64,000 bases of DNA, taken from NCBI GenBank assembly GCA_937996685.1, contig CALKUP010000015.1, positions 7,900 through 71,899 of the forward strand, in the 5' to 3' direction. Numbering within the stretch: position 1 is the stretch's first letter; the number at the start of each line of letters is the position of its first letter. The notes beneath the pieces are model-generated. The model did not search any database. It was not told the DNA's origin and worked only from the letters and a program-made list of their open reading frames with translations. The position numbers and the translations under genes were made by a program. Below are positions 1,864-37,703 of this stretch, piece by piece. Source of the stretch: an uncultured bacterium (lineage in GTDB: Bacteria; Patescibacteriota; Patescibacteriia; UBA9570; XYC2-FULL-38-9).

Positions 1864-1889
1864 ATATAAATGTCACTAATTATCTCTGT

Positions 1890-1962: not shown

Positions 1963-2133
1963 AAAAAATTGAATGTACAAAAATGTATATGGATACTATG
2001 TTTTTTTTACCACTTGGTCAATGAATGGTGAGTGGTATATCAAACCGCATCTATACTTTTTCAACACCATCACGCGCGACCCTTCCATTGTTTTTAGAAA
2101 TGTGTATGATACCCTCATACACCCCGATAGCGT

Positions 2134-9025: not shown

Positions 9026-9397
9026 ATGGCGACAATAAATCCTTGGATCAATTTTAATGGCAATGCTGAAGAAGCATTTGATTTCTATCAATCAGTGTTC
9101 GGCGGCGAAGTAACAAAAGCAGAAAATGGAATGTTTATTTCTTTGCCGATTGGTAAAGAGAATCGCCTCATTGCCAATAATGTTCCACCAGAAATGGGCC
9201 GTGTGAATGAAAATGAAAATAGAAGCAAAATTGCAGTGAGCGCGGAAAGCAAAGAAGAAGCTGATAGAATTTTTAACGGCCTTTCAGCGGGCGGTGCTGT
9301 TGAAGTGCCAATGTCTGATGGCATGGGATTCTATATGGGGATGTTTCGAGATCAATATGGCATTGAATGGATTATTGAATACACACCAAATAACTAA
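9026..9397 (+). CDS. VOC family protein (PhnB-like glyoxalase fold)
   Basis: 123-aa ORF: MATINPWINFNGNAEEAFDFYQSVFGGEV...MFRDQYGIEWII matches the PhnB-like VOC architecture. Confidence 0.75.
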   Translation: MATINPWINFNGNAEEAFDFYQSVFGGEVTKAENGMFISLPIGKENRLIANNVPPEMGRVNENENRSKIAVSAESKEEADRIFNGLSAGGAVEVPMSDGMGFYMGMFRDQYGIEWIIEYTPNN

Positions 9398-9422
9398 CTC
9401 TTCAAAAGTAATAAAAGACTAC

Positions 9423-9452
9423 AAAAAATCCGCTGACTATGCGGATTTTTTT
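9423..9452. terminator. bidirectional intrinsic terminator
   Basis: AAAAAA-ATCCGC-TGACTAT-GCGGAT-TTTTTT. It serves the + VOC gene and the minus-strand small-protein gene. Confidence 0.7.
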
Positions 9453-9549
9453 ATACGATACAATAAGAAATAAGGACAGGAGACGACTATCTTCAAGCGC
9501 GTGTTGCACTGAAAGTTGTCGTCTCCGAAAGATCAGCTTTCTTGCAAAG

Positions 9550-9765
9550 CTAGAAGTACTGCAAGTAATTGAAGATGATCAGCCCGCACGAGATACTCAT
9601 CAACCCAGCTGTAAAGGCAACGGATATAATCTTGCCTAAAGGGTACGTTTGAGAGCCAATAGGCACCGGGACAGTACTCTGGATCATGACGTTGACGCTA
9701 AAAAGAGCAACATAAGACGTCATCAACCCGCCAATCACGCACAGGATCGCAGCAAGGATCGCCAT
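9550..9765 (-). CDS. small two-TM membrane protein (cassette copy 2, paralog of 5715..5960)
   Basis: 71-aa ORF with SD AAAGGGAGGAAACC-ATG. The N-terminus aligns to copy 1 with a 3-codon indel, and the SQTYPLGKIIS motif matches SKSYRLGSIS. Confidence 0.55.
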   Translation of the reverse strand: MAILAAILCVIGGLMTSYVALFSVNVMIQSTVPVPIGSQTYPLGKIISVAFTAGLMSISCGLIIFNYLQYF

Positions 9766-14156: not shown

Positions 14157-17100
14157 CTATTTGCTTACAGCGAAAGTTCCGTTAGTCTTGAGCTTCCATG
14201 TGCGACTCACGCGTTTGCCTGATTTGCCATAGGTCACAGTCACTTGTTTCTTTTTTGTATTCACCGACAAGACTGGCTTTGATAAGTCGGTCACAGTAAG
14301 CGATTGTGATTGCTGTTTTGTGAGCGTATGCGCAGTTGTTAAACGCATTCCATAGACTCGCGCAGTCTTTCCTTTGACTGCTGCAATAAAGACTGAATCA
14401 TAACTATTGTATACCCGAGTCACAGCAATGCGATAATTTGCGCTTGTGTAGGCTGTTTTTCCAATTGTTTTTTTCGCTACTTGTACTCCATTTTTAAAGA
14501 CACGAACATCTTTACCGTTTGTTACAACAATACGCTTTTTATCTGTCGATAAGGCATATCGAAAATTTTTCGACGTTCCAAATGGTCTGAGTGTTGCAGT
14601 TGTTGTATCAGCATATGTCACTGTCAGCGCGGCACCACTTTGACGCACCGTCCGCACTGCTCCGTGATCTACCGGCGTTGTATCAACTGGCTCTGGAACA
14701 ACTTCAGGAGCGACAACCGTTACTGTGCGAGTCACTTCTGTTGCGGCATTTCCTGTACTATCTTGCACGTTATACCGCAATGTATATGTCCCAACAGTAT
14801 TCACATCAACGCTACCCGTTTGCACAATACTACTGGTGACCACACCCTGGACCGCATCTGTCGCTGTTGCTCCAGCGTCCGTATAACTATCACCTTGCGT
14901 GATTGTGACCGCGGAATTGCCAAGCAATGAAATCGTTGGTGCTGCCCGATCAAGTGTCACAGTAGACGCGACAGCTGATACTGTTGTATTTCCAAGTGCG
15001 TCTTGATACCGCAGTGTCACTGTGTACACACCGTCTGCCAAAGTTGATGCAGACGCAGAAGTAACATGGCTAGAAGTAAATAAATTTGAAAGTTGAAGCG
15101 TACTATTTACAGATTGCGTTGTATCCATCAACAACGTTGTTGAGCCGCTGGCATTATCAAATGACACTGAAATAGTGTTTGATTGTGGCCCTTCTGGAAG
15201 AGAATATTGCAATTGCAACGCGTTATTAAAACTACTGCTCGCAGGTGATGTGAGCGTCGGGGTTTGGGTTGTTGTATCAATAATAACACTCGTTGCAACA
15301 GCACTCGTTGCTGGATTATTACGACCATCACGATAACTAAGTGTCACAGTGTGTGTTCCGTCAGCAAGGACTGGCATCGCACTTGGCGTAATCGTATTGA
15401 TATTTGAAAGATTATCAAAATTTACTTGATTGCCACTATCTGCAGGATTAAACAAAAAATTCACTGACTGACTATTTTCCATTTGGAATACTACCGTGCC
15501 ACTGGTTGCTACATTCGTGAATGTGACACGCACGCTTCCGGCAAGTGGTGCTTCTGGAAGAGAATATTGCAGACGGACTCGATTCATCGATCCTGACCCT
15601 GGCGATGACAATGTTGGTGATTGCGTAACAGTGTCAACTGTAACCGTCGTTTGCGCTGCAACAGAAATATCCCCTTCATCATCCACGGAAAAAATACTGT
15701 AGTAATAAAGACGATCCAGCAAATCATTATCTGAACGTGTTGTTCCGGTCACACCACTCGCAACAGCTGAGCCATCCGTCACACTCGTCGGATACGCTGA
15801 TGTACTACGACGAATTGTCACTGACGAAAAATGCGGATCGGTTGAATTTGTCCACGCAAGGTTCACGTCATTCCCAACAGCTGTCGCAGTAAAAGCCGTC
15901 GGCGGAGTGGTATAGCCTAATTCGTACGCACCAATATCACAATTGGTATTTTGCGGGCGAGAAGTTTGCCGTGAATCTGTTATAAGAGCCGAACCAGCTG
16001 CATCTGTACATGACACAGGCGGGATAAGATTTAATGTATCACCAACTCCTGACAATGCGAGTGTTTGCACAAAACCTCCATTATTTGCCGGCACCGCTGT
16101 TGCCATGTAACTCGGTGGCACTGGATGATTGAATGAATCTCCTGTCACTGAGGTGATAAAACAATCTTCTCTTAATTCCCCAATATAATTATAGCCTTGT
16201 GATGTAAGGTTTCCTTGGCAATCCTCATAAAAAGGTGATGGCATTGGAGCAACAAAATTGGATGCAATAATGTTATTTTTCAGAATAACATTACTAAATC
16301 CCCCACTATAGACACCAGCTGCAATACCTGCATGATTATTTGTAAAGGTTGAAAACGCAATCACAATTTCTGGTGTATCACCTGTACTTGAATTGAATCC
16401 ACCCCCAGTATCAGATGCGGTATTATTATAAAACGTACCATTAGTAATCTGCATTGGCGTGCCAGCAAATACACCACCTCCAGCCACCGCTGTGTTCTCA
16501 ATAAAGGTGACACGATTCATAACAATTGGATTATTCCCTTCAGGCCCAGAACCAGAAAGACCTCCACCAGCATCTACCGCTGCTGTATTATTTGTAAACT
16601 CAACATCGGTGAGCGTATTGGTTGTTGTTGTGTTTGTATCAATAAACATACCACCGCCACTAGCAGCTGAGTTTCCAGAAATGATTGTACGACTGATATC
16701 AGATGTACAATCACCTGAAATTCCGATACCGCCACCAAACACTGTTTGCACCCCTGGATCAGCTGACATGTTGCCACTCACTGTCACATCCGTCAGTGTT
16801 ATATCCCCGGCTGCACAATAGATACCAGCGCCATACTGCGAAATAATCCCACTTGGGTTATCAAGGACACTATTTTGGATTGTCACATGTGAAAACACCA
16901 ATGAGCCCTCATTTAATACACCGCCACCATTTGCACTGGTCACTGAACTGTCATTCACAGTCACACCAGACATTGTCGCTCGCGCCCCGCTGGCAATATG
17001 AAAAGCACGGTCAAGATCATCTGAGTCAATAATGGTCGTTGCCATGTCAGCGCCAGTCACGGTTGTGAGGTCTGCATCAAGAAAGTCAAAATCACCCGTT

Positions 17101-17351
17101 ACATTCAAGTCTTCACCTGCTCCTGATCGTGTAATATGGTACGTATTTGCTGGCAACACAATCGTATCAACACCTCCACTATTTGCCGCAGTCACTGCTT
17201 CACGCAACGAACAATCGGAGTCACATGTACCGTCGGCTGTATCGGTATTTTTTGTGACTGTATACGTTGCGGCGTGTGCAACTGTTGGCGTCAATCCAAT
17301 AAGAACAAAGAAGAGAATTGATAACGCGCTACCATAAAATATTTTCAGCAT
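14157..17351 (-). CDS. giant secreted right-handed beta-helix protein with Ig/FN3-like domains and a conserved C-terminal module
   Basis: 1064 aa with a signal peptide. N-terminal CDSDCSLREAVTAANSGG then many PbH1-type repeats (NNTA..GGG). Thr/Ser-rich Ig-like segments follow. The C-terminal ~170 aa are homologous to the C-terminus of the 18990..25397 protein. Confidence 0.85.
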   Translation of the reverse strand: MLKIFYGSALSILFFVLIGLTPTVAHAATYTVTKNTDTADGTCDSDCSLREAVTAANSGGVDTIVLPANTYHITRSGAGEDLNVTGDFDFLDADLTTVTGADMATTIIDSDDLDRAFHIASGARATMSGVTVNDSSVTSANGGGVLNEGSLVFSHVTIQNSVLDNPSGIISQYGAGIYCAAGDITLTDVTVSGNMSADPGVQTVFGGGIGISGDCTSDISRTIISGNSAASGGGMFIDTNTTTTNTLTDVEFTNNTAAVDAGGGLSGSGPEGNNPIVMNRVTFIENTAVAGGGVFAGTPMQITNGTFYNNTASDTGGGFNSSTGDTPEIVIAFSTFTNNHAGIAAGVYSGGFSNVILKNNIIASNFVAPMPSPFYEDCQGNLTSQGYNYIGELREDCFITSVTGDSFNHPVPPSYMATAVPANNGGFVQTLALSGVGDTLNLIPPVSCTDAAGSALITDSRQTSRPQNTNCDIGAYELGYTTPPTAFTATAVGNDVNLAWTNSTDPHFSSVTIRRSTSAYPTSVTDGSAVASGVTGTTRSDNDLLDRLYYYSIFSVDDEGDISVAAQTTVTVDTVTQSPTLSSPGSGSMNRVRLQYSLPEAPLAGSVRVTFTNVATSGTVVFQMENSQSVNFLFNPADSGNQVNFDNLSNINTITPSAMPVLADGTHTVTLSYRDGRNNPATSAVATSVIIDTTTQTPTLTSPASSSFNNALQLQYSLPEGPQSNTISVSFDNASGSTTLLMDTTQSVNSTLQLSNLFTSSHVTSASASTLADGVYTVTLRYQDALGNTTVSAVASTVTLDRAAPTISLLGNSAVTITQGDSYTDAGATATDAVQGVVTSSIVQTGSVDVNTVGTYTLRYNVQDSTGNAATEVTRTVTVVAPEVVPEPVDTTPVDHGAVRTVRQSGAALTVTYADTTTATLRPFGTSKNFRYALSTDKKRIVVTNGKDVRVFKNGVQVAKKTIGKTAYTSANYRIAVTRVYNSYDSVFIAAVKGKTARVYGMRLTTAHTLTKQQSQSLTVTDLSKPVLSVNTKKKQVTVTYGKSGKRVSRTWKLKTNGTFAVSK

Positions 17352-18989: not shown

Positions 18990-21900
18990 TTATTGTTTTT
19001 TCAATGCACCGCTTGATTGCACAAGCCATGTATATGATTGCTTTTTCTTGCCTGAACCAAAAGTGGTTGTGAGTTGTTTTTTCTTTACAGAGAACCCAAT
19101 ATTGAGTTTTGTATTACTTTGAATTTTGACTGTTTGAGCAGTTTTTTTCTTTAACCCATTCCCTGTTGTGAGCTGATGCGCAAAGACTGTTGCCGTCGTC
19201 TTTTTTGGAGCGATTGTGACAAAGACTGAGTCAAAATTCTTGTGCACTTTTCTGACAGAAAGTGTGTATTGTCCTTTTTGTACTGTTGCGTTTCCAAGTT
19301 TCGCTCGCGCAACCCGACGACTATTTGCAAACACGCGAATTTCTTTTCCGTTTGTCGCAACGATCCGTTTTTTATTACTTGATAACGTATAGAGAAAGTT
19401 TGCAGACGTTCCAAATGGTTGAATTGTCGCTGTTGTCGCATCACGATATGTCACAAGTAACTGGTTGTTGATTTTTTGTACAGTCGTAATGACTCCATCA
19501 TTTGTTGTTGTGACAGGTGGCGTTGTCGGAGTTTCTGTTGTCGTTCCTGGATCAGTAGCCGGCTCATCAACTGGACAACCCGTCGTCGTAAAGATCCCAG
19601 CATCTGATGTCGAGCGATTACCAGAAGTATCGGCGGATGACGCAGTATATTGATACGTTGTACATGCCGTGAGACCAGACAGCAATACAGCATGGCTGGT
19701 CACACGTGGCGCAAAGTCTACTTCTGCAGTTGTTGTCGTTGACCCGCCAACCGGACCATATGACACGCGACTTGATGACGCTTCATTCGTTGTCCATGTG
19801 ATAGTAGCTCCTGTTGTCGCTGGCGTTGCGCTCAACGCTGTAATAGCTGGGGGCGTACTATCATCCATGCCCCCAATAGACCACAGCTCTCGCCCATAGG
19901 CCTGGGATTGCGCAGTAAATACTGCTCCACCCCCAAAACCAAGTACCGTCGATGGATCGCTGCCCAATAGGCCTGGATTAATATCAGACAGCATGTATGT
20001 CCCGTTTGATGTTCCGTCTGAACGCCACAACTCTAGACCATGTGCTCCATCGTGTACTTGAAAATATAATATCCCATTGACTGCACTAAAATCACCCCAA
20101 CTCGAATTATTCGCACTTGTCACTTCTTTTACTTGAACTGTTCCTTCAGTTGTACCATCCGTTTTCCATAATTGGGGAAACCCAGATCCGTTATCGGCGG
20201 TAAAAAAGAGTGAACCGCCAACGATGGTTAAATTCCCTGGATAGCTATCACCTCCTGTGTTTTCATTGATATCTTTTACCAGCGCTGTTCCTTCTTCTGT
20301 TCCATTTGATTTCCAGAGCTCCGTGCCACCTTCATTACTATTGTATGCAGAAAAATACATCCAATCATTCAGCACAACCATACTGCTCGGCAAGGCACTG
20401 CAATCAGGACAGAGATCAACTGCGAGTACTGTTCCTTCAGTTGTGCCATCAGTCTTCCATAACTCATACTCATGAGAATCATCACTAGCAGTAAAATACA
20501 ACGTACCGTGATACTCAACAAATCCAAATGGACCACTGCCTGTACTGCCTGGGAATATATCTTTCACGAGCGTTGTTCCTTCTTCTGTTCCATTAGATTT
20601 CCACAATTCAAAACCATGAGCGCTGTCATATGCAGAAAAATATAACTCACTATTGTATGTAAATCCACCCTGGATATAGGACATTCCCTCTTCATTTACA
20701 TCTTTTACGAGCGCTGTTCCTTCGGTTGTACCGTCCGTCTTCCATAACTCGTAACTATGCGTTCCATCATCAGCGGTAAAATACAGAGCATTACCAACTA
20801 TCTTAAAATTATATGGATATGAATTATCAACTCCTGTAAAAATATCTTTTACCATTACTGTTCCTTCTTCAGTTCCATCAGTCTTCCATAGTTCGTAGCC
20901 ATGCGTTCCGTCATCAGCGGTGAAATATGTAACACCATCGAGGTAGATAAAACCGTATGGATAACTACTACCACTTGGACGAATATCTTTTAATAATTGC
21001 GTACCCTCTGCTGTGCCGTCTGATACATACACCTCTGCGCCAGTGGACGGATGTGACGCAACACCAATTAAGCGACTCCCTGCAACAATAAAATCTGCCA
21101 CACTTCCACCAGTTCCGCTGCTGTCATTTACTTCAGCGACCATGGAAAAATTATTTTCAGTGGTGCTAAATTTCCACAAACGTTGACCGCTGTCGCCATT
21201 GTCTCCGGCAAATAACAGATTCGTCCCATTTATCGTAAACCACTCTATGCCATCACCTGTTGGGTTCAGATCCTCAACCATCAATGTTCCTTCTTCAGTT
21301 CCATCAGTCTTCCATAGTTCATAGCCATGCGTTCCGTCATCAGCGGTGAAAAAGACCTGACCGTCTACAATAGTAAACATTCGTATATCCAGACTACGAT
21401 CACCTTCGTTAATATCTTTCACCAACGTTGTTCCTTCAGTTGTGCCGTCGGTCTTCCATAACTCGTAGCCATGCGTTCCGTCATTTGCAGCAAAAAATAA
21501 TGTTGAGCCAGTGCCAAAAAACATTCCCGGACTAGCATTTGCGCTGCCAGGATTAATATCTTTCACCACATAGGTTCCTTCATCAGTTCCATCAGTACGC
21601 CAGAGCTCAGAACCATTTGTACTATTTGTGAGCTGGTAATAACCAATGCCATTAAAACTATACACATCACCAATGGTAACTCCAGAGCCGATTGGTTCAA
21701 TGTTCTTAATCAAATATGTGCCACGAGCAGTTCCGTTTGTTCTCCATAACTCCCAACCATTTACACCATCATCAGCTGCAAACACCACTGTTCCATCCCC
21801 TATCTGAGTAAAGAAACAAGCATATGAACCATATGATCCCGCATTCACATCTTTCACCATACGTGTTCCGTTTGGCGTTCCATCAGTTTTCCATAACTCA

Positions 21901-24900
21901 CTGCCATTGATGCCGTCATCCGCCGTGAAATACATCACTGAATCAAACACCGTTTGCCTATCAATCCTTGCTTGGTCTTCAGGGTGAATATCTTTAATCA
22001 TTTCTGTTCCGTTTGGCGTTCCGTCAGATGCCCACATTTCTCGACCATGCACTCCGTCATCTGCTGAGAATACAATCCGACCATTCACAACATACAAAGA
22101 TTGAATTGACTCTGAATACGGACTGATTTGTTTTATAAATTCTGTCCCAGCATCTGTCCCGTCTGATTTCCATATTTCTGATGAGTCACTAAAGAACACA
22201 GAAAAATATGCGGTAGACCCAATAACCTCAATATCATTGATATACCCCTCTTCACCCGAAAATGAGCGCAAGAGAGTCGTTCCACCTGTTGTACCGTCTG
22301 TTTTCCAAAGCTCACTGTCGTCTTTTGCTTTAAAATAGGTCACGCCGTCACCAGTTGCAATGTCACCTATGTCTGCATCAGCAGGGCCATCATCAATGTC
22401 TTTTATCAACTCTGGCGTTTCTGAAGCACCTGCACTTGGACAACCATTCGTCAAAAAATATTTTGAATTACTTTGCGCTGAGTTCTCTGCAGTATCAACT
22501 GACTGCACGGTGTATCCATAATGCGTACACGGCAGCAATTCAGTCAGTACAACTGAATGACTTGTCACTCTCGGGTCTATGTCAATTTGACTTGTTGTTA
22601 TTGGCGCTTGATTTGTTGCGTGATACGACACCTCACTCGAGCTCGCCTCATTGGTATTCCATGTAATTGTTACACTTTCATCTGTAATACTTACCTCTTG
22701 CTGATAAATACTTGGGCCCGTTGTATCCGTAATACTCCCTAATACCCACGGCTCCCAATTATATTCTGGTGTATATGCTGAAAAAAATACACGGCCTTCA
22801 AAAGATGTGAAAAAAGCCGGATAACTAGAATCTACACCAGGATTCAAATCTGCAAGCTCTTGCGTTCCGCCTTCAGTCCCATCCGATACCCATGGTTCAG
22901 TTCCGTGATCGGTTGTATTCACACTAAAATACAACAAACCGTTTATTGCTGTAAGGTTTGAAAATGCATAACTCGAAACATCCGTAATGTCTTTTACTTT
23001 ATGTGTCCCACCCTCGGTTCCATCAGACGCATAGAGCTGTCGAGATCCTGTCCCGTCATCGGCAATGAAAAATAACGTATCACCAACGACTATCATCTGC
23101 TCAGGACTTGCATACGCGGTACCTGGCGCAATATCTTTCACCATGTACGTTCCACTTTCAGTCCCATCTGAACGCCAGAGCTCGACTCCAGTGTCGGTAT
23201 CTGGAGAATATATTTCAAAATATGCAATACCATTCATTGCCACAATATATGATGGCTGACCTGAACATCCACTAGAACACGCATCTTTTACCATGTATGT
23301 TCCGCCTTCAGTCCCATCTGAACGCCAGAGCTCCATGCCATGTACGCCATCATTTGTATTAAACAATACAGTTGAATCATCAATCGCCGTTAAATCATAT
23401 GGATCTCCATTGCCCGAAGGATTTGTATCTTTGACCATGTATGTTCCTTCCTCGGTTCCGTCAGAACTCCAGAGCTCTGTTCCGTTGGTGTCATCTGTTG
23501 CAACAAAAAATGCCGTATCACCAGCGTTAATGATATACGTTGGATCACTAGAGCCTGACAACCGAATATCCTTCACCAGCATTGTTCCGCTTTCAGTCCC
23601 ATCTGAACGCCAAAGTTCTTTTCCGTTTACCCCATCAGTTGCAGCAAAAAACAACATGCCATTGACGACAGTAAATGATTCAATGTCACTAGAGTCAACT
23701 CCAGTGTTAATGTCTTTTAACAAGAACGTCCCTTCAGGAGTTCCATTTGATTGCCAAAGCTCTGTTCCATGATCAGCGTCAGTGGCTGTAAAATATGTCA
23801 CACCATCGAGATAGGTAAAATGATCTGGAGCGCCGTCATTTCCAAGGTATATATCTTTCACCAGCGTTGTTCCGCTTGGCGTCCCATCAGAAATATAGAG
23901 TTCATTTCCAGTCACCGGTGACGTTGCTGAGCCAATCATAAAACTGCCCGCAGCAATAAATTGAGAACCACCATCCATTGTTGCAGTGCCACGATACAAA
24001 GACTTCACTTTCACTGTCCCTCCTTCTGTTCCGTCTGACTTCCAAAGACCTGTTCCATCGGGTCCTGTTGTACCTGCAAAAAACACGTTGGTTCCCGTTG
24101 AGCTAAATTGACCACCATATTGAAACACAACGCCGTTCGAGTACGGACTCACATCACGAATCAATGTCGTCCCTCCTTCTGTACCGTCGGTTTTCCATAG
24201 CTCATGTCCATATACCGGATCAATAGCACTAAAGACAACATCTGAACCGACCATTTGAAAATTCGATGGGTATGCATTTGAATTGCCTGGGAAAATATCT
24301 TTGACCAAAACAGTACCCCCTTCTGTTCCATTTGATTTCCAGAGCTCGCTACCATGAACGCCGTCGTCAGCAACAAAGAATACAGAATCATTATATATAA
24401 AGAAATCAAACATATTTGAACCTTCAGTACCTGGGAAAATATCTTTGACTAATACAGTACCTTCCTCAGTTCCGTCTGATTTCCATAATTCAGCACCATT
24501 TGTACCATCATTTAATGAAAAATACGCCACTCCATTATGGGCAATACTGTAATACACGGCAGAGCTTGCGCTCCCAGGGGCAATATCAGACACCAGCGTC
24601 GTCACGTCAGTATCCTTTACTGTTTTCCATATTTCAGATCCGTAATCCGGCGTGGTAGCGCTATAGAGAATCGAATCACCAATGTCAACTAAATAACCTG
24701 GATACGCCCCCCCGATGCCTGCGTATAGAGGAGCCACCATATACGTCCCTATTTCTGTTCCATCTGATTTCCAGAGCTCGCTACCATCAAATCCGTTACT
24801 TGCGGCAAAATACAACCCTGAACTCGTTGCAAGCATAGAGCTAATCCCAGAATCATCTGTTGAGAGATTAATCTCAGCAACCATCACCGTTCCACCTTCT

Positions 24901-25397
24901 GTTCCGTCTGATTTCCAGAGCTCTCGACCATGTGTATCATCTTCGGCTGTAAAAAACAGCGTCCCAGAAACATCGATCAAATCACGCGGATAACTTCCAC
25001 CACTTGTATTAATATCTTTTACTTTTACTGTCCCTTCCTCTGTTCCATCTGATTTCCAGAGCTCTTGCCCGTCACTTGAATCATTAGAAACAAAAAACAA
25101 CGTCCCGTTCGACGCTGTTAGATAATCAATATTCGCAGAACCTCCCACATTCGGATTCGCGACTAATACCGTTCCACCTTCTGTCCCATCTGATTTCCAT
25201 AACGCATTCCCATTCACACCATCATTTGTTGTGAAATAGGTTGTTGTTCCAATAGTCGTGAGATTCAAAATATCATCTGCCTCTGGAGCAGTATTCATAT
25301 CTTTAAACAGCTCGGGCGTATCATACGCAAACGCAGCTGCTGTATGAAAAACGAAGACGCTTGCAAGTACTATAGAAAATATCAGGCGCTGTATCAT
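18990..25397 (-). CDS. giant (2135 aa) secreted ELWxxDGT-repeat protein with FN3-like domains and the shared C-terminal module
   Basis: Signal peptide MIQRLIFSIVLASVFVFHTAAAFA. About 40 repeats of ~45 aa (GxELWKSDGTEGGTVLVKDIxPG...). Two FN3-like Thr/Ser-rich segments (ITWTTNEASSSRVSYGP). C-terminus VTYRDATTATIQPFGTSANF...KKRIVATNGK... is homologous to the end of 14157..17351. Confidence 0.9.
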   Translation of the reverse strand: MIQRLIFSIVLASVFVFHTAAAFAYDTPELFKDMNTAPEADDILNLTTIGTTTYFTTNDGVNGNALWKSDGTEGGTVLVANPNVGGSANIDYLTASNGTLFFVSNDSSDGQELWKSDGTEEGTVKVKDINTSGGSYPRDLIDVSGTLFFTAEDDTHGRELWKSDGTEGGTVMVAEINLSTDDSGISSMLATSSGLYFAASNGFDGSELWKSDGTEIGTYMVAPLYAGIGGAYPGYLVDIGDSILYSATTPDYGSEIWKTVKDTDVTTLVSDIAPGSASSAVYYSIAHNGVAYFSLNDGTNGAELWKSDGTEEGTVLVKDIFPGTEGSNMFDFFIYNDSVFFVADDGVHGSELWKSNGTEGGTVLVKDIFPGNSNAYPSNFQMVGSDVVFSAIDPVYGHELWKTDGTEGGTTLIRDVSPYSNGVVFQYGGQFSSTGTNVFFAGTTGPDGTGLWKSDGTEGGTVKVKSLYRGTATMDGGSQFIAAGSFMIGSATSPVTGNELYISDGTPSGTTLVKDIYLGNDGAPDHFTYLDGVTYFTATDADHGTELWQSNGTPEGTFLLKDINTGVDSSDIESFTVVNGMLFFAATDGVNGKELWRSDGTESGTMLVKDIRLSGSSDPTYIINAGDTAFFVATDDTNGTELWSSDGTEEGTYMVKDTNPSGNGDPYDLTAIDDSTVLFNTNDGVHGMELWRSDGTEGGTYMVKDACSSGCSGQPSYIVAMNGIAYFEIYSPDTDTGVELWRSDGTESGTYMVKDIAPGTAYASPEQMIVVGDTLFFIADDGTGSRQLYASDGTEGGTHKVKDITDVSSYAFSNLTAINGLLYFSVNTTDHGTEPWVSDGTEGGTQELADLNPGVDSSYPAFFTSFEGRVFFSAYTPEYNWEPWVLGSITDTTGPSIYQQEVSITDESVTITWNTNEASSSEVSYHATNQAPITTSQIDIDPRVTSHSVVLTELLPCTHYGYTVQSVDTAENSAQSNSKYFLTNGCPSAGASETPELIKDIDDGPADADIGDIATGDGVTYFKAKDDSELWKTDGTTGGTTLLRSFSGEEGYINDIEVIGSTAYFSVFFSDSSEIWKSDGTDAGTEFIKQISPYSESIQSLYVVNGRIVFSADDGVHGREMWASDGTPNGTEMIKDIHPEDQARIDRQTVFDSVMYFTADDGINGSELWKTDGTPNGTRMVKDVNAGSYGSYACFFTQIGDGTVVFAADDGVNGWELWRTNGTARGTYLIKNIEPIGSGVTIGDVYSFNGIGYYQLTNSTNGSELWRTDGTDEGTYVVKDINPGSANASPGMFFGTGSTLFFAANDGTHGYELWKTDGTTEGTTLVKDINEGDRSLDIRMFTIVDGQVFFTADDGTHGYELWKTDGTEEGTLMVEDLNPTGDGIEWFTINGTNLLFAGDNGDSGQRLWKFSTTENNFSMVAEVNDSSGTGGSVADFIVAGSRLIGVASHPSTGAEVYVSDGTAEGTQLLKDIRPSGSSYPYGFIYLDGVTYFTADDGTHGYELWKTDGTEEGTVMVKDIFTGVDNSYPYNFKIVGNALYFTADDGTHSYELWKTDGTTEGTALVKDVNEEGMSYIQGGFTYNSELYFSAYDSAHGFELWKSNGTEEGTTLVKDIFPGSTGSGPFGFVEYHGTLYFTASDDSHEYELWKTDGTTEGTVLAVDLCPDCSALPSSMVVLNDWMYFSAYNSNEGGTELWKSNGTEEGTALVKDINENTGGDSYPGNLTIVGGSLFFTADNGSGFPQLWKTDGTTEGTVQVKEVTSANNSSWGDFSAVNGILYFQVHDGAHGLELWRSDGTSNGTYMLSDINPGLLGSDPSTVLGFGGGAVFTAQSQAYGRELWSIGGMDDSTPPAITALSATPATTGATITWTTNEASSSRVSYGPVGGSTTTTAEVDFAPRVTSHAVLLSGLTACTTYQYTASSADTSGNRSTSDAGIFTTTGCPVDEPATDPGTTTETPTTPPVTTTNDGVITTVQKINNQLLVTYRDATTATIQPFGTSANFLYTLSSNKKRIVATNGKEIRVFANSRRVARAKLGNATVQKGQYTLSVRKVHKNFDSVFVTIAPKKTTATVFAHQLTTGNGLKKKTAQTVKIQSNTKLNIGFSVKKKQLTTTFGSGKKKQSYTWLVQSSGALKKQ

Positions 25398-29832: not shown

Positions 29833-30036
29833 TTCCACTAACATAAGACAAAAAACCTGGACAAATTCACTGATATGCGCTATAAACGGTTCATTTATTA
29901 CTGCTCTTTCTCGGATCTATACGAGATTCACATTCGGCAATTGCAGATTTATAGAAAGTCGATTTATATCGATCTGCAGTTGCTGAATCACTCAGCACTG
30001 GCGCGCCCATCCCGGGTTGCGCAAGGGAGGTAGACC

Positions 30037-30279
30037 ATGGAACGATGGCTCTTCTCCGGGGCTGCCGTGAGCGCACTCGCGCTCTGGCTGTCCCACTCCT
30101 GCCCTGGCGGCGTGACTGGCCTTCTGGTCACGCTTCTCGTCTCGGAGATCGGCGCTTTTGGCGTCAGCCTCCTTCCTTGGACCGACACGGAGCGTGAAGA
30201 CGCCGTGACCGGCCTCCGCAAGGTTGGGCGAATCTCCGCCCTGCCTTTCCTCCTCGCAAGAGGGTGGAGCCAGTCCTGA
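30037..30279 (+). CDS. small two-TM membrane protein in a ~63% GC insert
   Basis: 80-aa ORF with a canonical SD (AGGGAGGTAGACC-ATG). The GC-rich block at about 29990-30345 contrasts sharply with its ~40% GC flanks. Confidence 0.5.
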   Translation: MERWLFSGAAVSALALWLSHSCPGGVTGLLVTLLVSEIGAFGVSLLPWTDTEREDAVTGLRKVGRISALPFLLARGWSQS

Positions 30280-30357
30280 TCCGACTGGTGCGTTCTGTGA
30301 GGAAATCCTCGCCTGGCCACTGTGAAAACAGTGTGTTGGTCGAGGTTGTTTTTTTAT

Positions 30358-31845
30358 CTAAAACAATGTGCCACTTGTTATCCCTGGCGCCCACTGTGCA
30401 ATATACGCCTCAAGATCAAACTTTTTTTTGAGACCTGACTGCGCCATAAACCGAACCGTTCCAAACACCTCGCGATCAAACCACGGCCGATCATGCACCC
30501 CGCCAATGGACCATGCAATGCCAACATATCCATTCGGATCACGTCCATCGAGTGAATATCGATCATTGAGCACAATCGCCCATTTCTGCGCTTGCTCTGG
30601 ATCTTTCGTCCACTCAAGTATTTTTTTTGCCCAATACATTCGCATATAGCCGTGCATTTTCCCTGTCCGAACCATTTGCAGTTGCGCCGCATTCCACGCC
30701 GGATCATGCGTCTTGCCCTGTTCAAATTCTTTCAGTGTATATAGATATTCTCGCTGATCTGTTCGATGCGCATTCAAGGTCTGCTGCGCCCACTCTGGAA
30801 AACCAGCAAACGAATCGTAGTGCGGTTGATAGAAACAATAATTATCCGACAGCTCGCGGCGCACAATCAGCTCTTCCAAAAACGCTGCAGCAGAATCCGC
30901 AAGCGACATCTGCTTCGACTGCTTTTCTCGTGACGCAGCGTTTGCTCGCGCATCAAACAATCGATTGACTGACGCGCCAGATACTGCAATCACTGACAGC
31001 GCGACACGTTGCGGTGCAATCATTCCATAATGTAGATACGGCGACAGATCTGATTGCCCATCAATTGTCGGATCATTGCGGTCGATGCCATATTCTTTCA
31101 ACCTCTCGATAAACACCTCAAGTTGTTTGTGCGCAGCAGACTCTCCGGAAGCCACGGCAATCTCAGCATCAATCGCGTGTGGCTTCGGCCCTGCTTTTTC
31201 AAGTGTCTTCCATTTTGGTGCGTGCGGTTGCGGATGGACATCTGCAATCAAACGCTGCTGTTTTGGCGAGTGCACTTCTGGAAAATCGGTTAAAAAATCC
31301 GGCAATCGCTTGTGAATCTTTGGTCTGATGGTGCGCGCTGCCCATTCTTGTTTATCAGACGTCTCCCACACCGGGACGATATTGTGCGCATCCACTTCAA
31401 TCAGCGAAAGGTTCGGCAACGCTTTCATCAACGCCACATTCCACTGTCGTTGAATCTTCAATGGATTACAATCAACCACGACTGTTTGCACATCCCATTT
31501 CTTAAGCAGCGTAGCCATATCAGCTTCTGCGTCATCACCCGCTGTCACCATCAGCGGAATATGGTGTTTATGCAACGCCACTTCAACGCTCTGCAGTCCT
31601 TCAAGCTTGAAGCGATACTGTCGTGCCCCACCACCAAGATACTCCGACTTCAAATTATACATCACAACAAGGGGTAGTTGCTGCTCCTGCGCCACCTCAA
31701 TCGCCGTCAGCAAACTCCAATTATCCTGCACCCGCATCTCTCGAGTCATCCAATACACCACAACTTGTGGCTGTGCACTTGCGACAGCTGCGCCTGCTTG
31801 CAACACACGCTGGCGTCGTTTGTCAGTCTTTGTGATATTCGTCAT
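30358..31845 (-). CDS. phr: class II CPD deoxyribodipyrimidine photolyase
   Basis: C-terminal class II hallmarks (DPNGYVGIAWSIGGVHDRPWFDREVFGTVRFMAQSGLKKKFD) and an N-terminal alpha/beta domain. ATG at 31845 (MTNITK...) is preferred over the track's TTG at 31863. Confidence 0.9.
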   Translation of the reverse strand: MTNITKTDKRRQRVLQAGAAVASAQPQVVVYWMTREMRVQDNWSLLTAIEVAQEQQLPLVVMYNLKSEYLGGGARQYRFKLEGLQSVEVALHKHHIPLMVTAGDDAEADMATLLKKWDVQTVVVDCNPLKIQRQWNVALMKALPNLSLIEVDAHNIVPVWETSDKQEWAARTIRPKIHKRLPDFLTDFPEVHSPKQQRLIADVHPQPHAPKWKTLEKAGPKPHAIDAEIAVASGESAAHKQLEVFIERLKEYGIDRNDPTIDGQSDLSPYLHYGMIAPQRVALSVIAVSGASVNRLFDARANAASREKQSKQMSLADSAAAFLEELIVRRELSDNYCFYQPHYDSFAGFPEWAQQTLNAHRTDQREYLYTLKEFEQGKTHDPAWNAAQLQMVRTGKMHGYMRMYWAKKILEWTKDPEQAQKWAIVLNDRYSLDGRDPNGYVGIAWSIGGVHDRPWFDREVFGTVRFMAQSGLKKKFDLEAYIAQWAPGITSGTLF

Positions 31846-31879
31846 ACTGTGAGTATAAAACAATCATTCGCTTTTTCCT

Positions 31880-32458
31880 ATGCTTCTCACTCTCACCCAA
31901 TTCACCGTATTAGTCTGCTACGTCTTTATCGTTGGCGTTATCTTAGCAATTCTGGAAATTCAAATTGAAGGGCGTGACGGCTGGGCCGCAAAACTTCCTG
32001 CCTGGAAACCTAAAAAAAACAGCCGGACTGCGAAAATCACCTATGCCCTGACACGCAAAGATATGACCGGATATCACCTCTCACTCTTCACCCTGTTGTT
32101 ATTCTTTTTTCATTTACCGTTTGTCTGGAATTGGACATGGAACTGGCAGCAAGAAATTCAAGTTCTCGCATTCTTTTTTGTCTTTGCCGTCATTTGGGAC
32201 TTCCTCTGGTTTGTCTTAAACCCGCATTATGCACTGCGCGATTTTGGACCAGAAGCAGTCTGGTGGCATCGCACATGGCTGTTGAAACTGCCGCTTGATT
32301 ATTGGATGGGATATCTCTGCGCGGCAATCCTCTATCTCCCACTCATCTGGAAATTCGGCAACGTCGCACTAATGCAACTCACAATCTTACTCGGCCTCAA
32401 CCTTCTGCTGACGACAATCACAATTATGCTCTACCCACACCGCAATGGAAAACAATAA
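31880..32458 (+). CDS. hypothetical polytopic membrane protein (Trp-rich)
   Basis: 192-aa ORF with 5-6 predicted TM helices; no recognised domain. Confidence 0.55.
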   Translation: MLLTLTQFTVLVCYVFIVGVILAILEIQIEGRDGWAAKLPAWKPKKNSRTAKITYALTRKDMTGYHLSLFTLLLFFFHLPFVWNWTWNWQQEIQVLAFFFVFAVIWDFLWFVLNPHYALRDFGPEAVWWHRTWLLKLPLDYWMGYLCAAILYLPLIWKFGNVALMQLTILLGLNLLLTTITIMLYPHRNGKQ

Positions 32459-34249: not shown

Positions 34250-34753
34250 ATGAGGATGACGCGTAGAGAATTTTTGAGCGGACTGAGTTGCGCCGTGATT
34301 GCTGGCAGTATTGCGACCACCACTGGTTGCACTATCACCGGAAAGACGACTGAAGACCTTGTCATTCCAGGCGCACTGATCGCGAACGGAACGACCATCG
34401 AGAACGACACTCTTGCAGACCTCTTGGAGTGGTTGATTAAAACCGATGAGTTCACTCGCATTCGAGGACTCGTTGTCGCTGAATGTCCAGAACTCGAGAG
34501 CATTGAAAATCTGGGCGAACACACGCGACTGCCCGCAGGACTCGAAATCACCTTCCGGTACGTTCAGGCGATGAAGATTGTCCGAGGAGACAACCTCTCT
34601 GGCCAGACGGTCGGCGACATCCGCCGTGAACACAACGCAAACGTGATCATCGTCAACAACGGCAATGCCCTGGAACTCAATGATGCGGAGCCGGTCTACT
34701 CTGACGACTGGATCGTCATCAATCCTGGAGAATCAAGTCGCAATAGTACCTGA
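34250..34753 (+). CDS. Tat-signal (RREFL) exported hypothetical protein in a GC-rich (~56%) insert
   Basis: MRMTRREFLSGLSCAVIAGSIATTTGCT with an AGGAGG SD. The overlapping antisense ORF 34037..34633 has no start context and was rejected. Confidence 0.65.
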   Translation: MRMTRREFLSGLSCAVIAGSIATTTGCTITGKTTEDLVIPGALIANGTTIENDTLADLLEWLIKTDEFTRIRGLVVAECPELESIENLGEHTRLPAGLEITFRYVQAMKIVRGDNLSGQTVGDIRREHNANVIIVNNGNALELNDAEPVYSDDWIVINPGESSRNST

Positions 34754-34908: not shown

Positions 34909-35331
34909 ATGACATTGCCAGAAATCATGGACAATTTGCGCGGCGACGGATATCGCTTAACGGTTTCACGGAAAGCCTTGCTTGAAATTCTCTACTCTGC
35001 CGACACTCCACTGTCTGCACAAGAACTCCTTGCAGCACTCACAAAGAAAAAAATCACCGTGAACAAAACAACTGTCTATCGAGAGCTTGATTTTTTGCAT
35101 GACAAAGAATTGATTGAAGAAGTGCAGTTCGGAAAAGAATCAATGAAACGCTATGAATTCGCACTTGGCACACACCACCATCACATTCAATGCATGAACT
35201 GTGGAACCGTCGCTGATGTTGATATGCCTGATGAGCTCAAAAGTGCCAGCGCTCTGATTCGCAAACAGACTGGTTTTCGCGTTCTTGAACATTCATTAGA
35301 GTTTTCTGGACTCTGCGATAATTGTCAGTAA
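34909..35331 (+). CDS. zur: Fur-family metalloregulator, probably Zur
   Basis: 140 aa with a winged helix and HHHIQCMNCG...CDNCQ metal sites. Immediately upstream of znuA. Confidence 0.85.
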   Translation: MTLPEIMDNLRGDGYRLTVSRKALLEILYSADTPLSAQELLAALTKKKITVNKTTVYRELDFLHDKELIEEVQFGKESMKRYEFALGTHHHHIQCMNCGTVADVDMPDELKSASALIRKQTGFRVLEHSLEFSGLCDNCQ

Positions 35332-35393
35332 TAGAGACCACTGATTCTTTCTTCCGTGTGGTTATCCACATTTTTTTATAGGCCGTTCTTGCA

Positions 35394-35412
35394 AATGCAA
35401 CTGAGTTGCGTT
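35394..35412. promoter_or_regulatory. candidate Zur/Fur operator (near-perfect 19-bp palindrome) upstream of znuA
   Basis: AATGCAACTGAGTTGCGTT (GCAACT-G-AGTTGC core) lies 45 bp upstream of the znuA ATG. Confidence 0.35.
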
Positions 35413-35454
35413 AGTCTGTGAACATCTGAATCCTATCTTCCCTCTATTCATCAT

Positions 35455-36438
35455 ATGAAAAAACTACTCCTGTCTCTACTTCTCCTCGCCTTTGTCGGCA
35501 CTGCAATTTTTATTACCGTATCACGCAAGCCTGATCCTGTTATCCCATCAAACCCAAACACTGTAACGGTCGTGACAAGCAACATGACAATTGCAGCATT
35601 TGCAAAAGACGTTGCCGGCGACAGCGCCACTGTCACAAGCCTTGCAAAGCCCGGCATCGAAGTGCACGACTTTGAGCCAACACCGAAACAAATCGCAAGC
35701 CTGTCAGATGCCGACCTCTTCATTATCAACGGCGCTGGACTTGAGCCATGGGCTGAAAAAATCATCCCAGATCTTCAAAAAAATGGCGTGACTGTTGTGC
35801 GCTTATCTGATTCGGTTACATTACGCAAGGCAGATAAAACATCTGACGAACATGGTCATGATGAAACTGAGACATCTGATTCACACGGACATGACGAAGC
35901 TGAAATGTCTGACCCACATTTTTGGCTCAGTCCGGTTGTAATGCAAAAAGGCATTACCGCTATTGCTGAAGGATTACGCAGTGTAGAACCAACAAACGCT
36001 GACCAATACACCAAAAACGCAGCGACGGTGAATACAGAGCTCGCAAACCTTGATGCAGAATATCGCAAAAATCTCGCTCCAGAACGCTGCCAATTAGATA
36101 CTATTATTGCCGCGCATGATGCGTATGGATATCTTGCAGCGGAATACGGTTTCACTATTGAAGCAATTTCCGGCATCTCTCCTGAAGAAGAACCGTCCGC
36201 CGCTCGATTATCTGAACTTGCAGAATTGGTTAAAAAAACTGGCATCAAACACATTTTCTTTGAAAGCCTCACGAGTCCAAAACTCGCTGAAACAATTGCC
36301 AAAGAAACGGGAGCAACAACGCTCGAACTCAATCCATTGGAAGGTTTTTCAGAAGAGGATATCGCAAACAAAAAAACATACATTTCTATCGCCAAGGACA
36401 ATCTCGCAAACCTGAAAACTGCCATGCAGTGCCAATAG
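35455..36438 (+). CDS. znuA: zinc ABC transporter substrate-binding protein (ZnuA/TroA cluster A-I) with a His-rich loop
   Basis: N-terminal TM anchor, DEHGHDETETSDSHGHDEAEMSDPHFW His/Asp/Glu loop, and overall ZnuA architecture. Confidence 0.9.
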   Translation: MKKLLLSLLLLAFVGTAIFITVSRKPDPVIPSNPNTVTVVTSNMTIAAFAKDVAGDSATVTSLAKPGIEVHDFEPTPKQIASLSDADLFIINGAGLEPWAEKIIPDLQKNGVTVVRLSDSVTLRKADKTSDEHGHDETETSDSHGHDEAEMSDPHFWLSPVVMQKGITAIAEGLRSVEPTNADQYTKNAATVNTELANLDAEYRKNLAPERCQLDTIIAAHDAYGYLAAEYGFTIEAISGISPEEEPSAARLSELAELVKKTGIKHIFFESLTSPKLAETIAKETGATTLELNPLEGFSEEDIANKKTYISIAKDNLANLKTAMQCQ

Positions 36439-36491
36439 ATCGTCAAGGAAGCAAAAGCAGTATATACTACATTTCATTACTATTGCTTTGT

Positions 36492-37592
36492 ATGAAAAAT
36501 ATCATTCTCACATCTCTATTCTGCCTGTCACTCCTTCTCCCAACAGCGACACACGCCCAAATTGCCAGCGGTGATACCGTTGAATATTTCAAAGGCGTCA
36601 TTACAGACATCCGCAACACTACTTCCCCTGCCGGCGGCAGCGAACAAACCTTCACAGTAAAATACTGTTGCGACGCAAACAAGAATGAACAATTCGCCGA
36701 AGTTAAACAAGTCAAAAGCTCGGACGATGGAGAAGAACGAGACTTTTCAAAAAACGATCGCGTTGTCATTTTGCATTTACAAAATGAATCACAGAATGCG
36801 TTTTATATTACTGAGCATTATCGCTTAAATGGCTTACTGATATTACTCGCCATCTTTGTATTGATTGCATCTATCATTGGTAGAAAAAAATCACTTGCAG
36901 CATTTGCTGGTTTAGGCTTTTCGTTTCTTGTCTTGATGTATTTTATTGTCCCGCAAATTATTCAAGGCCACAGTCCGCTGATCGTCGGCACAATTGGATC
37001 ACTCGTGATCGCGCTCATCGCAATTTTCATGGCGCACGGCATTGAAAAAAAGACCGTTCTTGCAGTTCAAGGAACGATCATTACCATTGCGCTCGCCTTT
37101 CTGTTTTCTGCCGGATCCATCTGGCTCGTCAAACTATTTGGCAAAGGATCGGAAGACGCCTTTTATGTGCAATCAGCGTTTCAGGGCGCGATCAACATGA
37201 AAGGCTTGTTGCTGATCGGTATGATTATCGGCGTCCTTGGCGTGTTAGACGACGTGACAACCGCGCTCACCGCAACGATTGAGGAAATCCACACCGCAAA
37301 CCCCGCACTTTCAAGTAAGGATCTGTTTCAAAAAGGTATGCGAGTCGGGAGAGAGCACATTGCCTCACTGATTAACACCCTTGTTCTTGCCTACGCTGGA
37401 TCATCACTTCCCCTCCTGTTATTATTTCGTGTGCAAACCCAGCCGTGGTGGGTGTCACTGAACAGCCAATTCCTTGCCGAAGAAATCACCCGTGCAATCA
37501 TCGGTAGTACTGCCTTGATTCTCGCTGTCCCAATCACCACCTTTATTGCGGCTCGCGCATACGGCCCCGAAAAGCAGTCTCTGGACAAATAA
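36492..37592 (+). CDS. YibE/F-family polytopic membrane protein with an N-terminal extracytoplasmic domain
   Basis: Signal peptide MKNIILTSLFCLSLLLPTATHAQ, a ~110-aa extracellular domain containing a CC pair, then 7-8 TM helices typical of YibE/F. Confidence 0.7.
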   Translation: MKNIILTSLFCLSLLLPTATHAQIASGDTVEYFKGVITDIRNTTSPAGGSEQTFTVKYCCDANKNEQFAEVKQVKSSDDGEERDFSKNDRVVILHLQNESQNAFYITEHYRLNGLLILLAIFVLIASIIGRKKSLAAFAGLGFSFLVLMYFIVPQIIQGHSPLIVGTIGSLVIALIAIFMAHGIEKKTVLAVQGTIITIALAFLFSAGSIWLVKLFGKGSEDAFYVQSAFQGAINMKGLLLIGMIIGVLGVLDDVTTALTATIEEIHTANPALSSKDLFQKGMRVGREHIASLINTLVLAYAGSSLPLLLLFRVQTQPWWVSLNSQFLAEEITRAIIGSTALILAVPITTFIAARAYGPEKQSLDK

Positions 37593-37626: not shown

Positions 37627-37703
37627 GTCAGGGTAGCTCAGTTGGTTAGAGCACGGGACTCATAAGCCCGGGGTCGAGAGTTCGAATCTCTCCTCTGACA
37701 CCA
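37627..37703 (+). tRNA. tRNA-Met (anticodon CAT; elongator versus Ile2/initiator not resolved), CCA encoded
   Basis: GTCAGGGTAGCTCAGTTGGTTAGAGCACGGGACTCATAAGCCCGGGGTCGAGAGTTCGAATCTCTCCTCTGACACCA. Anticodon loop CTCATAA. Confidence 0.85.

Follow-up and report, generated by a model that had tools for sequence, protein, structure and literature searches.

Introduction

The closest described counterparts of the locus treated here are the zinc importers ZnuABC, AdcABC and YcdHI-YceA, in which a cluster A-I substrate-binding protein (SBP) works with an ATP-binding cassette (ABC) permease of the ABC-3 type and an ATPase. In the cluster A-I SBPs, a histidine at the third ligand position is the signature of zinc, whereas manganese and iron binders such as PsaA possess a glutamate there. 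The streptococcal AdcAII and Lmb are orphan zinc SBPs, which are co-transcribed with histidine-triad Pht proteins and use AdcBC encoded elsewhere. We analyzed a stretch of 64,000 nucleotides (hereafter, the window; contig CALKUP010000015.1) from an uncultured Patescibacterial bacterium, in which a gene for a candidate zinc repressor (zur), an SBP gene (znuA) and a gene for an uncharacterised membrane protein of the YibE/F family (yibEF) follow each other. On balance, we favor the reading that the locus is a zinc-starvation unit and that YibE/F is a Zur-repressed zinc-uptake component working alongside ZnuBC or ZIP, with znuBC likely encoded elsewhere in the genome.

As in the ZnuABC-type systems, the SBP of the window belongs to the same family and carries a zinc-type site of three histidines and one glutamate together with a His/acid-rich loop. 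A gene for a Fur-family regulator adjoins, and a palindromic operator lies over the putative promoter. Furthermore, a full A-C-B set surrounds YibE/F in many related loci, so that YibE/F is a fourth, previously undescribed operon member in the related genomes. However, the window possesses no ABC-3 permease or ATPase gene in its 64 kb; instead, the predicted operon contains the gene for the unrelated, presumably seven-transmembrane (TM) YibE/F. With AdcAII and Lmb, the locus shares a zinc SBP gene that stands apart from the permease and ATPase genes, a non-ABC surface or membrane partner, a zinc repressor, and the presence of His-rich secreted proteins in the Patescibacterial regulon (L004 and L022). 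In contrast to them, the partner is a polytopic membrane protein and not a secreted His-triad protein, the regulator is of the Fur family and not, like AdcR, of the MarR family, and an ABC partner encoded elsewhere is only presumed for the ZnuA of the window.

The YibE/F family is listed as TCDB family 9.B.141 with no known function (PMC3924187), and in Staphylococcus aureus its two members count among the strongest determinants of fitness in human blood (PMC13227979). Our targeted literature searches on YibE/F and on Zur regulons found no paper that links YibE/F to zinc or Zur. Human blood is a metal-restricted setting. The Patescibacteria (candidate phyla radiation, CPR) are almost all uncultured and possess tiny genomes, and their metals must come at or from host cell surfaces. 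The comparative data given below provide YibE/F with a concrete and testable role in the zinc-starvation response. The assignment of YibE/F to this regulon, with its architecture variants, appears to be new and to be the first functional lead for the family.

The zur-znuA-yibEF locus

A sequence-only reading of the window had described a gene for a Zur-like repressor, a palindrome, a ZnuA with a His-rich loop and a YibE/F gene. Open reading frame (ORF) listing and Pfam searches located every one of these elements where it had been placed. The three genes are encoded on the forward strand. The zur candidate (34909-35331) encodes a Fur-family repressor of 140 amino acids (Pfam FUR, E 3e-27), znuA (35455-36438) encodes a zinc-specific cluster A-I SBP of 327 amino acids (Pfam ZnuA/PF01297, E 7e-82), and yibEF (36492-37592) encodes a membrane protein of 366 amino acids (Pfam YibE_F/PF07907, E 6e-69). 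The family assignment of the last gene stands, as the profile match of 232.6 bits (cut-off, 27.2 bits) covers positions 1-240 of 241. Its start, however, had been set at GTG 36429 according to the ORF finder. This position probably lies too far upstream, since P0001, a database protein of 366 amino acids with 100% identity, begins at ATG 36492.

The gap between znuA and yibEF is 53 nt, and a terminator scan detected no terminator-like site between the two genes. The same scan found an intrinsic-terminator-like hairpin followed by a T-run (GTGTGGTTATCCACAT, then TTTTTTATAG) after zur at 35356-35381 of the forward strand. The downstream boundary of the unit is formed by a tRNA-Met gene (37627-37703) and a convergent M23-peptidase/FG-GAP gene.

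The ZnuA residues H71, H155, H221 and E270 align with the ligand columns of AdcA. The protein is a cluster A-I SBP (PF01297) with a zinc-type site, as expected for a ZnuABC member. Residues 124-152 (nt 35824-35910) form an acidic/His-rich loop of 29 residues with 4 His and 10 Asp or Glu, and the N-terminus is a hydrophobic anchor or signal without a lipobox Cys. The closest solved relatives are AdcA, YcdH and Lmb, all of which are zinc proteins. The His/His/His/Glu ligand set was also found in all 19 SBPs that adjoin YibE/F genes elsewhere, and most of these possess His/acid-rich loops. Since the zinc ligands are intact, the ZnuA of the window is considered to be under selection.

The regulator contains an HHHH motif at 89-92 and CxxC motifs at 95/98 and 136/139. 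Thus, it combines the Fur-family fold, as judged by the Pfam match, with the CxxC pairs of a structural Cys4 zinc site. It is a candidate Zur; this assignment is drawn from the content of the regulon, namely from its apparent targets.

Linkage of YibE/F with zinc genes

YibE/F homologues come overwhelmingly from metagenome-assembled genomes of Patescibacteria/CPR. In two related loci (L004 and L005), YibE/F is 69-70% identical, the order zur-znuA-yibEF is the same, and the surroundings are syntenic. Since this order alone reflects only the synteny of close relatives, the scan was widened. A YibE/F alignment scan, restricted to a single genome for each GTDB species, yielded 80 loci (L006-L085). 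Most belong to different CPR lineages, among them Gracilibacteria, Peregrinibacteria/Peribacteria, Uhrbacteria, Magasanikbacteria, Andersenbacteria, Dojkabacteria and Paceibacterota, and a few to Actinomycetota and Chloroflexota. Several genomes titled 'uncultured Gammaproteobacteria' are evidently mislabeled CPR bins. As an independent set, 80 metagenome contigs, many of them short, were used.

Neighbors within four genes and 5 kb of YibE/F were clustered at 72 species-level loci without prior labels. The largest families were Fur (20 loci), ABC-3 (about 270 amino acids, 14), ABC ATPase (14) and ZnuA (13), followed by ZIP (about 260 amino acids, 9), DUF5320 (8), DUF134 (8) and the His-rich GTPase CobW/COG0523 (3). 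By tblastn, at least one of Fur, ZnuA, ABC-3, ZIP and CobW lay within 3 kb of YibE/F in 37 of the 80 genome loci and in 31 of the 80 metagenome loci. The density of these markers fell about 20-fold with distance, from 5-8 per 100 kb at 0-1 kb to 0-0.4 per 100 kb at 5-10 kb. Linkage was also detected outside the CPR, in Dehalococcoidia (L042), Actinomycetota (L077 and L084) and Nocardioides (L073). The recurrent linkage of YibE/F with ZnuA and Zur that the sequence-only reading called for is thus present in both sets.

The gene orders are varied. The order Fur-ZnuA-ZnuC-YibEF-ZnuB, with or without fur, was found in L011, L015, L018, L039, L060, L086, L109 and L112, and YibEF follows ZnuC-ZnuB in L036, L056, L089, L095 and L110. 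Divergent arrangements occur in L016, L020, L031, L090 and L092. Fur, ZIP and YibEF are combined in several orders, among them Fur-ZIP-YibEF and Fur-YibEF-ZIP (L009, L035, L062, L074, L079, L100, L103 and L104), and Fur-YibEF stands alone in L013 and L024. The reading frames often overlap or abut, with at most 9 nt between YibE/F and ABC-3 in six loci. Since the orders vary while the proximity is kept, these results argue for co-regulation and a shared function.

In most of the linked loci, YibE/F adjoins ZIP or accompanies a complete znuA-znuC-znuB set, which it either flanks or interrupts, in many cases at the junction of znuC and znuB. The suggestion that YibE/F takes the place of ZnuB and ZnuC is therefore not sustained as a general rule, as the protein is found mostly beside complete ZnuABC or ZIP and has no detectable homology to ABC-3 or ZIP. 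The partners observed are complete ZnuABC, ZIP, an SBP only, ZnuCB only and Fur only. Because the partners vary in this way, we regard YibE/F as an independent module of the zinc-starvation response and not as a general ZnuB/ZnuC replacement. Likewise, YibE/F and ZIP are not simple substitutes, since they co-occur in the same operons.

Pairs of DUF134 (predicted to bind DNA) and DUF5320 adjoin YibE/F in 8 of the 72 genome loci (L026, L028, L038, L040, L054, L070, L079 and L085), in some cases overlapping by 4 nt. Where Fur is missing, these proteins may act as the regulator or partner instead.

A conserved palindrome upstream of znuA

The palindrome between zur and znuA, AATGCAACTgAGTTGCGTT at 35394-35412, has 8 of its 9 arm positions paired. 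To the loci described above, we applied a search for all perfect palindromes with 5-nt arms and 0-11-nt spacers, in which the regions upstream of zinc-labeled genes were compared with the other upstream regions of the same loci. The three most enriched palindromes, GCAAC-N3-GTTGC, TGCAA-N5-TTGCA and CAACT-N1-AGTTG, are registers of one motif, and this motif, obtained de novo from other genomes, is the window's own palindrome with the core GCAACTnAGTTGC. The 10.8 kb of upstream target sequence contained GCAAC-N3-GTTGC at 8 loci, as compared with 3 loci for the 100 kb of background. The core with at most one mismatch occurred 27 times in 1.32 Mb, against about 3 expected by chance, and most of the occurrences are directly upstream of fur, znuA, ZIP or yibEF.

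A position weight matrix (PWM) was constructed from 17 sites (consensus, TAATGCAACTnAGTTGCATTA; family consensus of the box, wAAyGCAACTnAGTTGCrTTw). The site of the window, AAATGCAACTGAGTTGCGTTA, a 9-1-9 palindrome at 35393-35413, scored 31.7 bits, the highest value observed. No other site in the 64 kb reaches 14 bits, so that a second box of this score exists neither upstream of zur nor elsewhere in the window; a match with three mismatches at 16106 is at the level of chance. In the metagenome loci outside the training set, sites of 25-32 bits were detected in L086, L095, L098, L100, L103, L112, L118 and L152, and these boxes again adjoin fur, znuA or yibEF. Boxes directly upstream of yibEF were found in at least five loci (L016, L022, L031, L118 and L152). 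In the window, zur looks separately transcribed, whereas many other lineages have the box in front of fur itself.

A block of 28 nt, CTTGCAAATGCAACTGAGTTGCGTTAGT, is 100% conserved in the window, L004 and L005, whereas the surrounding intergenic DNA diverges. Inside this block, a -35-like TTGCAA (35389-35394) and a weak -10-like TAGTCT (35412-35417) with 17-nt spacing, read by eye, bracket the palindrome. They suggest a promoter on the forward strand (35389-35417) that would overlap the box. Because the -10 element is weak, a sigma-70 scan did not call this candidate znuA-yibEF promoter.

A conserved palindromic operator is thus present upstream of zinc-uptake genes in several genomes, as in a Zur regulon. 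Since the box sits before fur, znuA, ZIP, His-rich secreted proteins and yibEF, it is very probably the Patescibacterial Zur box. The earlier proposal of a Zur-type zinc-acquisition unit with a candidate operator gains support from the recurrence of the motif together with the gene linkage. Its layout is that of the Zur boxes known from other phyla: an AT-flanked inverted repeat, about 19-21 bp long, lies over the putative -35 and -10 elements and upstream of znuA, zur, ZIP and COG0523 genes. The core GCAACTnAGTTGC differs from what we take to be the Zur-box consensus of Bacillota, Actinomycetota and Proteobacteria. Our literature searches, which targeted YibE/F and Zur regulons rather than the motif, gave no description of it. 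The candidate box appears to be new, and it would allow prediction of Zur regulons in CPR genomes.

High-scoring boxes were also observed before genes for His-rich secreted proteins (L004, 2362-3204; L022, 8479-9099 and 9204-9782) with long His/Asp/Glu-rich stretches. These proteins probably belong to the same regulon and scavenge zinc at the cell surface. The His-rich gene of L004 and the adjoining gene for a TrmB-family regulator are missing from the otherwise syntenic window. In L166, a palindrome with a spacer longer by one base, GCAACTATTGTTGC (9284-9301), lies upstream of the Fur gene of an ABC-less cluster and may be a variant operator. L011 contains two tandem Zur-box-like sites between the genes at 1626-2315 (-) and 2405-3355 (+). 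Their products, assigned by eye as peroxiredoxin-like and MinD/ParA-like P-loop ATPase, may be further members of the regulon.

The YibE/F protein

At the level of 50%-identity clusters, the YibE/F family has 4,710 representatives (E<=1e-3). The AlphaFold2 model of the window's protein, calculated with 38 homologues, has a mean predicted local distance difference test score of 87 and a predicted template modeling score of 0.78. In this model, residues 1-23 are a signal or anchor helix, residues 29-109 (nt 36576-36818) are a five-stranded beta barrel resembling the oligonucleotide/oligosaccharide-binding (OB) fold, and residues 112-357 (nt 36825-37562) are the helical core. From the hydrophobicity and the Lys/Arg distribution, read by eye, we predict seven TM helices, an external barrel and a cytoplasmic C-terminus. 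The extracytoplasmic N-terminal domain of the sequence-only reading is therefore consistent with the modeled barrel and the positive-inside pattern. In contrast, the Cys pair that was described in it is not a feature of the family. It consists of the adjacent C59 and C60 in a 4-residue insertion confined to the clade of the window (P0001-P0004), and a conserved metal or disulfide site at this position was ruled out on this ground. The barrel alone matched PDB structures in a Foldseek search, namely the OB folds of SSB and PriB (E about 6e-3), and this domain carries no conserved metal ligands.

R111, H182-G183, a GxGSEE loop, D253-D254, E265, E288-H289, N295, E330-E331 and R334 are invariant. 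These residues cluster near both membrane faces, and E330, E331, R334 and the GSEE loop are predicted to be on the outer face. A His-rich tail is present at the extreme C-terminus, a predicted cytoplasmic end, in 25 of the 120 closest homologues (21%), including P0016, P0022, P0038, P0045, P0057, P0060 and P0075; examples are HSHSHSHGH, HHHHH and HKHHHGHGHHH. Such tails are typical of metal-handling proteins. Immediately upstream of YibE/F in L038, a gene at 9380-9679 encodes a membrane protein of 99 amino acids with a His-rich C-terminus (HKNHGGHDSDGSQDDHNSHRHL).

We also considered whether YibE/F is a divergent form of a known permease. The hhalign probability was 2% against the CPR ABC-3 family and 1% against 10 CPR ZIP proteins, and there was no Pfam Zip match. 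Both possibilities were rejected. YibE/F resembles ZIP/ZupT in its predicted Zur regulation, its conserved intramembrane His, Asp and Glu residues and the His-rich cytoplasmic segments, and ZIP genes are frequent neighbors of YibE/F. The two, however, have no detectable sequence kinship (hhalign, 1%), and the topology of YibE/F, an external OB-like domain with seven predicted TM helices, is different.

ABC genes and scattered znu genes

The absence of ABC ATPase and permease genes within 5 kb of the cluster had been pointed out before. It holds, and it extends to the whole window: a six-frame motif scan of the 64 kb detected no ORF with both a Walker A motif and an LSGGQ-type signature, and tblastn of the window with CPR ABC-3 (14 proteins), ZnuC-like ATPase, ZIP and CobW gave no match. 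The flanks without ABC genes are 34.9 kb upstream and 26.4 kb downstream. Within the window, the SBP is thus accompanied by neither the ABC-3 permease nor the ATPase of a ZnuABC system.

Clusters of ZnuA and YibE/F without ABC genes were found in at least four lineages, represented by the window with L004 and L005, by L022 (flanks of 10 kb on each side), by L052 and by L166 (labeled from database Pfam entries). L008, limited by the contig end, is a possible fifth. The SBPs across the lineages are 24-48% identical. This recurring ABC-less form, of which the window is an example, appears to be new. The converse, clusters of ZnuC, ZnuB and YibE/F without an SBP within the available flanks, was found in L014, L020 (closed genome CP129475.1), L031 and L110. 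Neighbors of 300-425 amino acids beside SBP-less loci were inspected as hidden SBPs (L014, L020, L031, L039 as comparison) and showed no resemblance to ZnuA. Because such SBP-less loci exist, the znu genes are considered to be commonly split between sites. Since YibE/F generally accompanies ZnuBC or ZIP, and since znu splitting is common, the location of znuBC elsewhere in the genome is most likely, and is the simpler option as compared with a ZnuA that feeds YibE/F. AdcAII and Lmb of the streptococci are a precedent for such an orphan zinc SBP.

Proposed role and rival explanations

The sequence comparisons mark YibE/F as a true and conserved part of the Zur regulon of the Patescibacteria. 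In the proposed mechanism, zur would be transcribed alone and would end at its own terminator, and the 21-bp palindrome would overlap the promoter from which znuA and yibEF would be transcribed as a two-gene operon. Under zinc sufficiency, zinc-loaded Zur would occupy the box and the operon would be off. When zinc is scarce, the operon would be derepressed, and the surface-exposed, zinc-specific ZnuA and YibE/F would be made. YibE/F would then serve as an uptake pathway for the metal ion, either as a secondary carrier or as a channel. We infer Zur repression, the co-transcription of znuA and yibEF, and the direction and substrate of YibE/F transport from sequence features. From its architecture and context, YibE/F is most likely a zinc (divalent-metal) uptake permease or an uptake-coupled membrane component. 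An uptake pathway is preferred because the core contains invariant carboxylates and His, because His-rich tails occur, and because the gene appears to be co-repressed with uptake genes. An efflux role is unlikely, since an efflux pump would not be expected in one operon with a high-affinity uptake SBP. Even when the results are taken conservatively, several thousand 'uncharacterised membrane proteins' could be better annotated.

Several observations weigh against the zinc-uptake role, and some of them favor other explanations. The NCBIfam equivalog models for Fur, PerR and Zur all match the regulator far below their cut-offs, the best of these sub-cut-off matches being Fur and PerR. Roughly one in two YibE/F loci lacks a nearby zinc gene, and some of these have DUF134/DUF5320 neighbors instead, so that the family may not be dedicated to zinc everywhere. 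The neighbor labels derive from greedy ORF calls with translation table 11, BLAST label transfer and Pfam searches of cluster representatives only; the genetic code of the Gracilibacteria differs from table 11. The window's YibE/F has no His-rich tail. A Foldseek search of PDB gave no match for the TM core at E<=1e-3, and a YibE/F sequence profile gave nothing significant against all PDB chains (HmuU only, E 0.16). Since the PDB search and the ABC-3 and ZIP profile comparisons were blank, YibE/F is regarded as a separate family without a solved relative, and since the TM core matches no solved transporter, the term 'permease' is derived from architecture and context. The regulator matches, together with the inclusion of manganese and iron binders in PF01297, would suit a cluster that handles manganese or iron, with Fur or Mur as the regulator and an SBP of the Mn/Fe type. 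This explanation is very unlikely: as in AdcA and ZnuA, the third ligand is His instead of Glu and the fourth is Glu, the SBP carries a His/acid-rich loop and has only zinc proteins among its best solved relatives, and the regulon includes ZIP, COG0523/CobW and His-rich secreted proteins. The loci without a zinc gene, and two 45%-identical homologues in unrelated contexts, could also mean that yibEF stands beside zur-znuA without a functional link, as a neutral coincidence of gene order within a compact genome. We give this explanation almost no weight, as it is already contradicted by the comparative data, namely the linkage in at least 68 of 160 loci across many CPR lineages and some Actinomycetota and Chloroflexota, the steep decay with distance, the varied gene orders and the Zur boxes directly upstream of yibEF.

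The two remaining explanations accept the link with zinc and differ in what YibE/F does. YibE/F could be a non-transporting accessory factor of zinc importers, a scaffold or a metallochaperone-like protein that hands over zinc or stabilizes ZnuB or ZIP. Its co-occurrence with complete ZnuABC or ZIP, which it does not exclude, its frequent packing between znuC and znuB with at most 9 nt to ABC-3 in six loci, and the external OB-like domain are consistent with such a factor. However, YibE/F is also found where Fur or a Zur box is its sole companion (L024, L037, L059 and L118), the invariant charges on both faces and the common His-rich tails fit an ion pathway better, and the OB-like domain lacks conserved metal ligands, so that we consider this role improbable, though worth keeping in view. 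Improbable to about the same degree is an ATP-independent, binding-protein-dependent zinc importer composed of ZnuA and YibE/F in a lineage that has lost znuBC. ZnuA would capture zinc outside, dock on the OB-like domain or the outer acidic cluster and hand the ion over. The position of yibEF directly after znuA, the lack of ABC and ZIP genes across the 64 kb, the ABC-less pairing in at least four lineages with such divergent SBPs, the intact SBP ligands, which indicate selection, and the invariant E330, E331, R334 and GSEE loop on the predicted outer face all agree with it. On the other hand, most of the linked loci also contain ZnuB and ZnuC, YibE/F is found with ZIP or with Fur alone in the absence of an SBP, which means that an SBP is not generally needed, and the SBP-less ZnuCB and YibE/F loci show that the znu genes are frequently split. 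Moreover, the flanks of the ABC-less loci cover only 5-35 kb of genomes of about 1 Mb. We therefore keep to a zinc-starvation unit in which YibE/F would work alongside ZnuBC or ZIP.

A bolder form of the uptake role, in which YibE/F is a new family of zinc-uptake permeases that is fed zinc directly by a ZnuA-type protein in the lineages with an SBP and without ZnuBC, is in our estimation unlikely. If this form is true, YibE/F would be the first binding-protein-dependent secondary (ATP-independent) transporter of metal cations, and if the ABC-less pairs are self-sufficient, they would represent a new transport principle for metal cations. In working principle only, the arrangement resembles the TRAP and TTT transporters, since the SBP gene is directly upstream of the gene for a non-ABC polytopic membrane protein. 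There is no homology to them: the Pfam match of the membrane protein is YibE_F only, and the SBP belongs to cluster A-I and not to DctP or TctC. To our knowledge, there is no TRAP- or TTT-style transporter for metal cations.

Neighboring genes and other observations

The other neighbors of the unit are unrelated housekeeping genes, namely those for a two-component system, a cytochrome b5-like protein, a photolyase, an HD protein, a class IV aminotransferase, YidC, a Band 7 protein, a DHH protein and a PilB-type ATPase. An ORF of 167 amino acids at 34250-34753 (+) possesses a twin-arginine-like signal (RREFL) and a lipobox-like TTGC. It is kept directly upstream of zur in L004 and L005, and no Zur box precedes it. 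As a conserved cluster member it was rejected; neither Pfam nor NCBIfam gave a match, and it shows no homology with the similarly placed protein of 188 amino acids in L166.

The GC content at 30001-32000 is 0.51, as compared with about 0.44 elsewhere in the window, and this region lies over a DNA-photolyase gene (30358-31863, -; 501 amino acids). Two very large ORFs are encoded on the reverse strand at 14157-17351 (1064 amino acids) and 18990-25397 (2135 amino acids).

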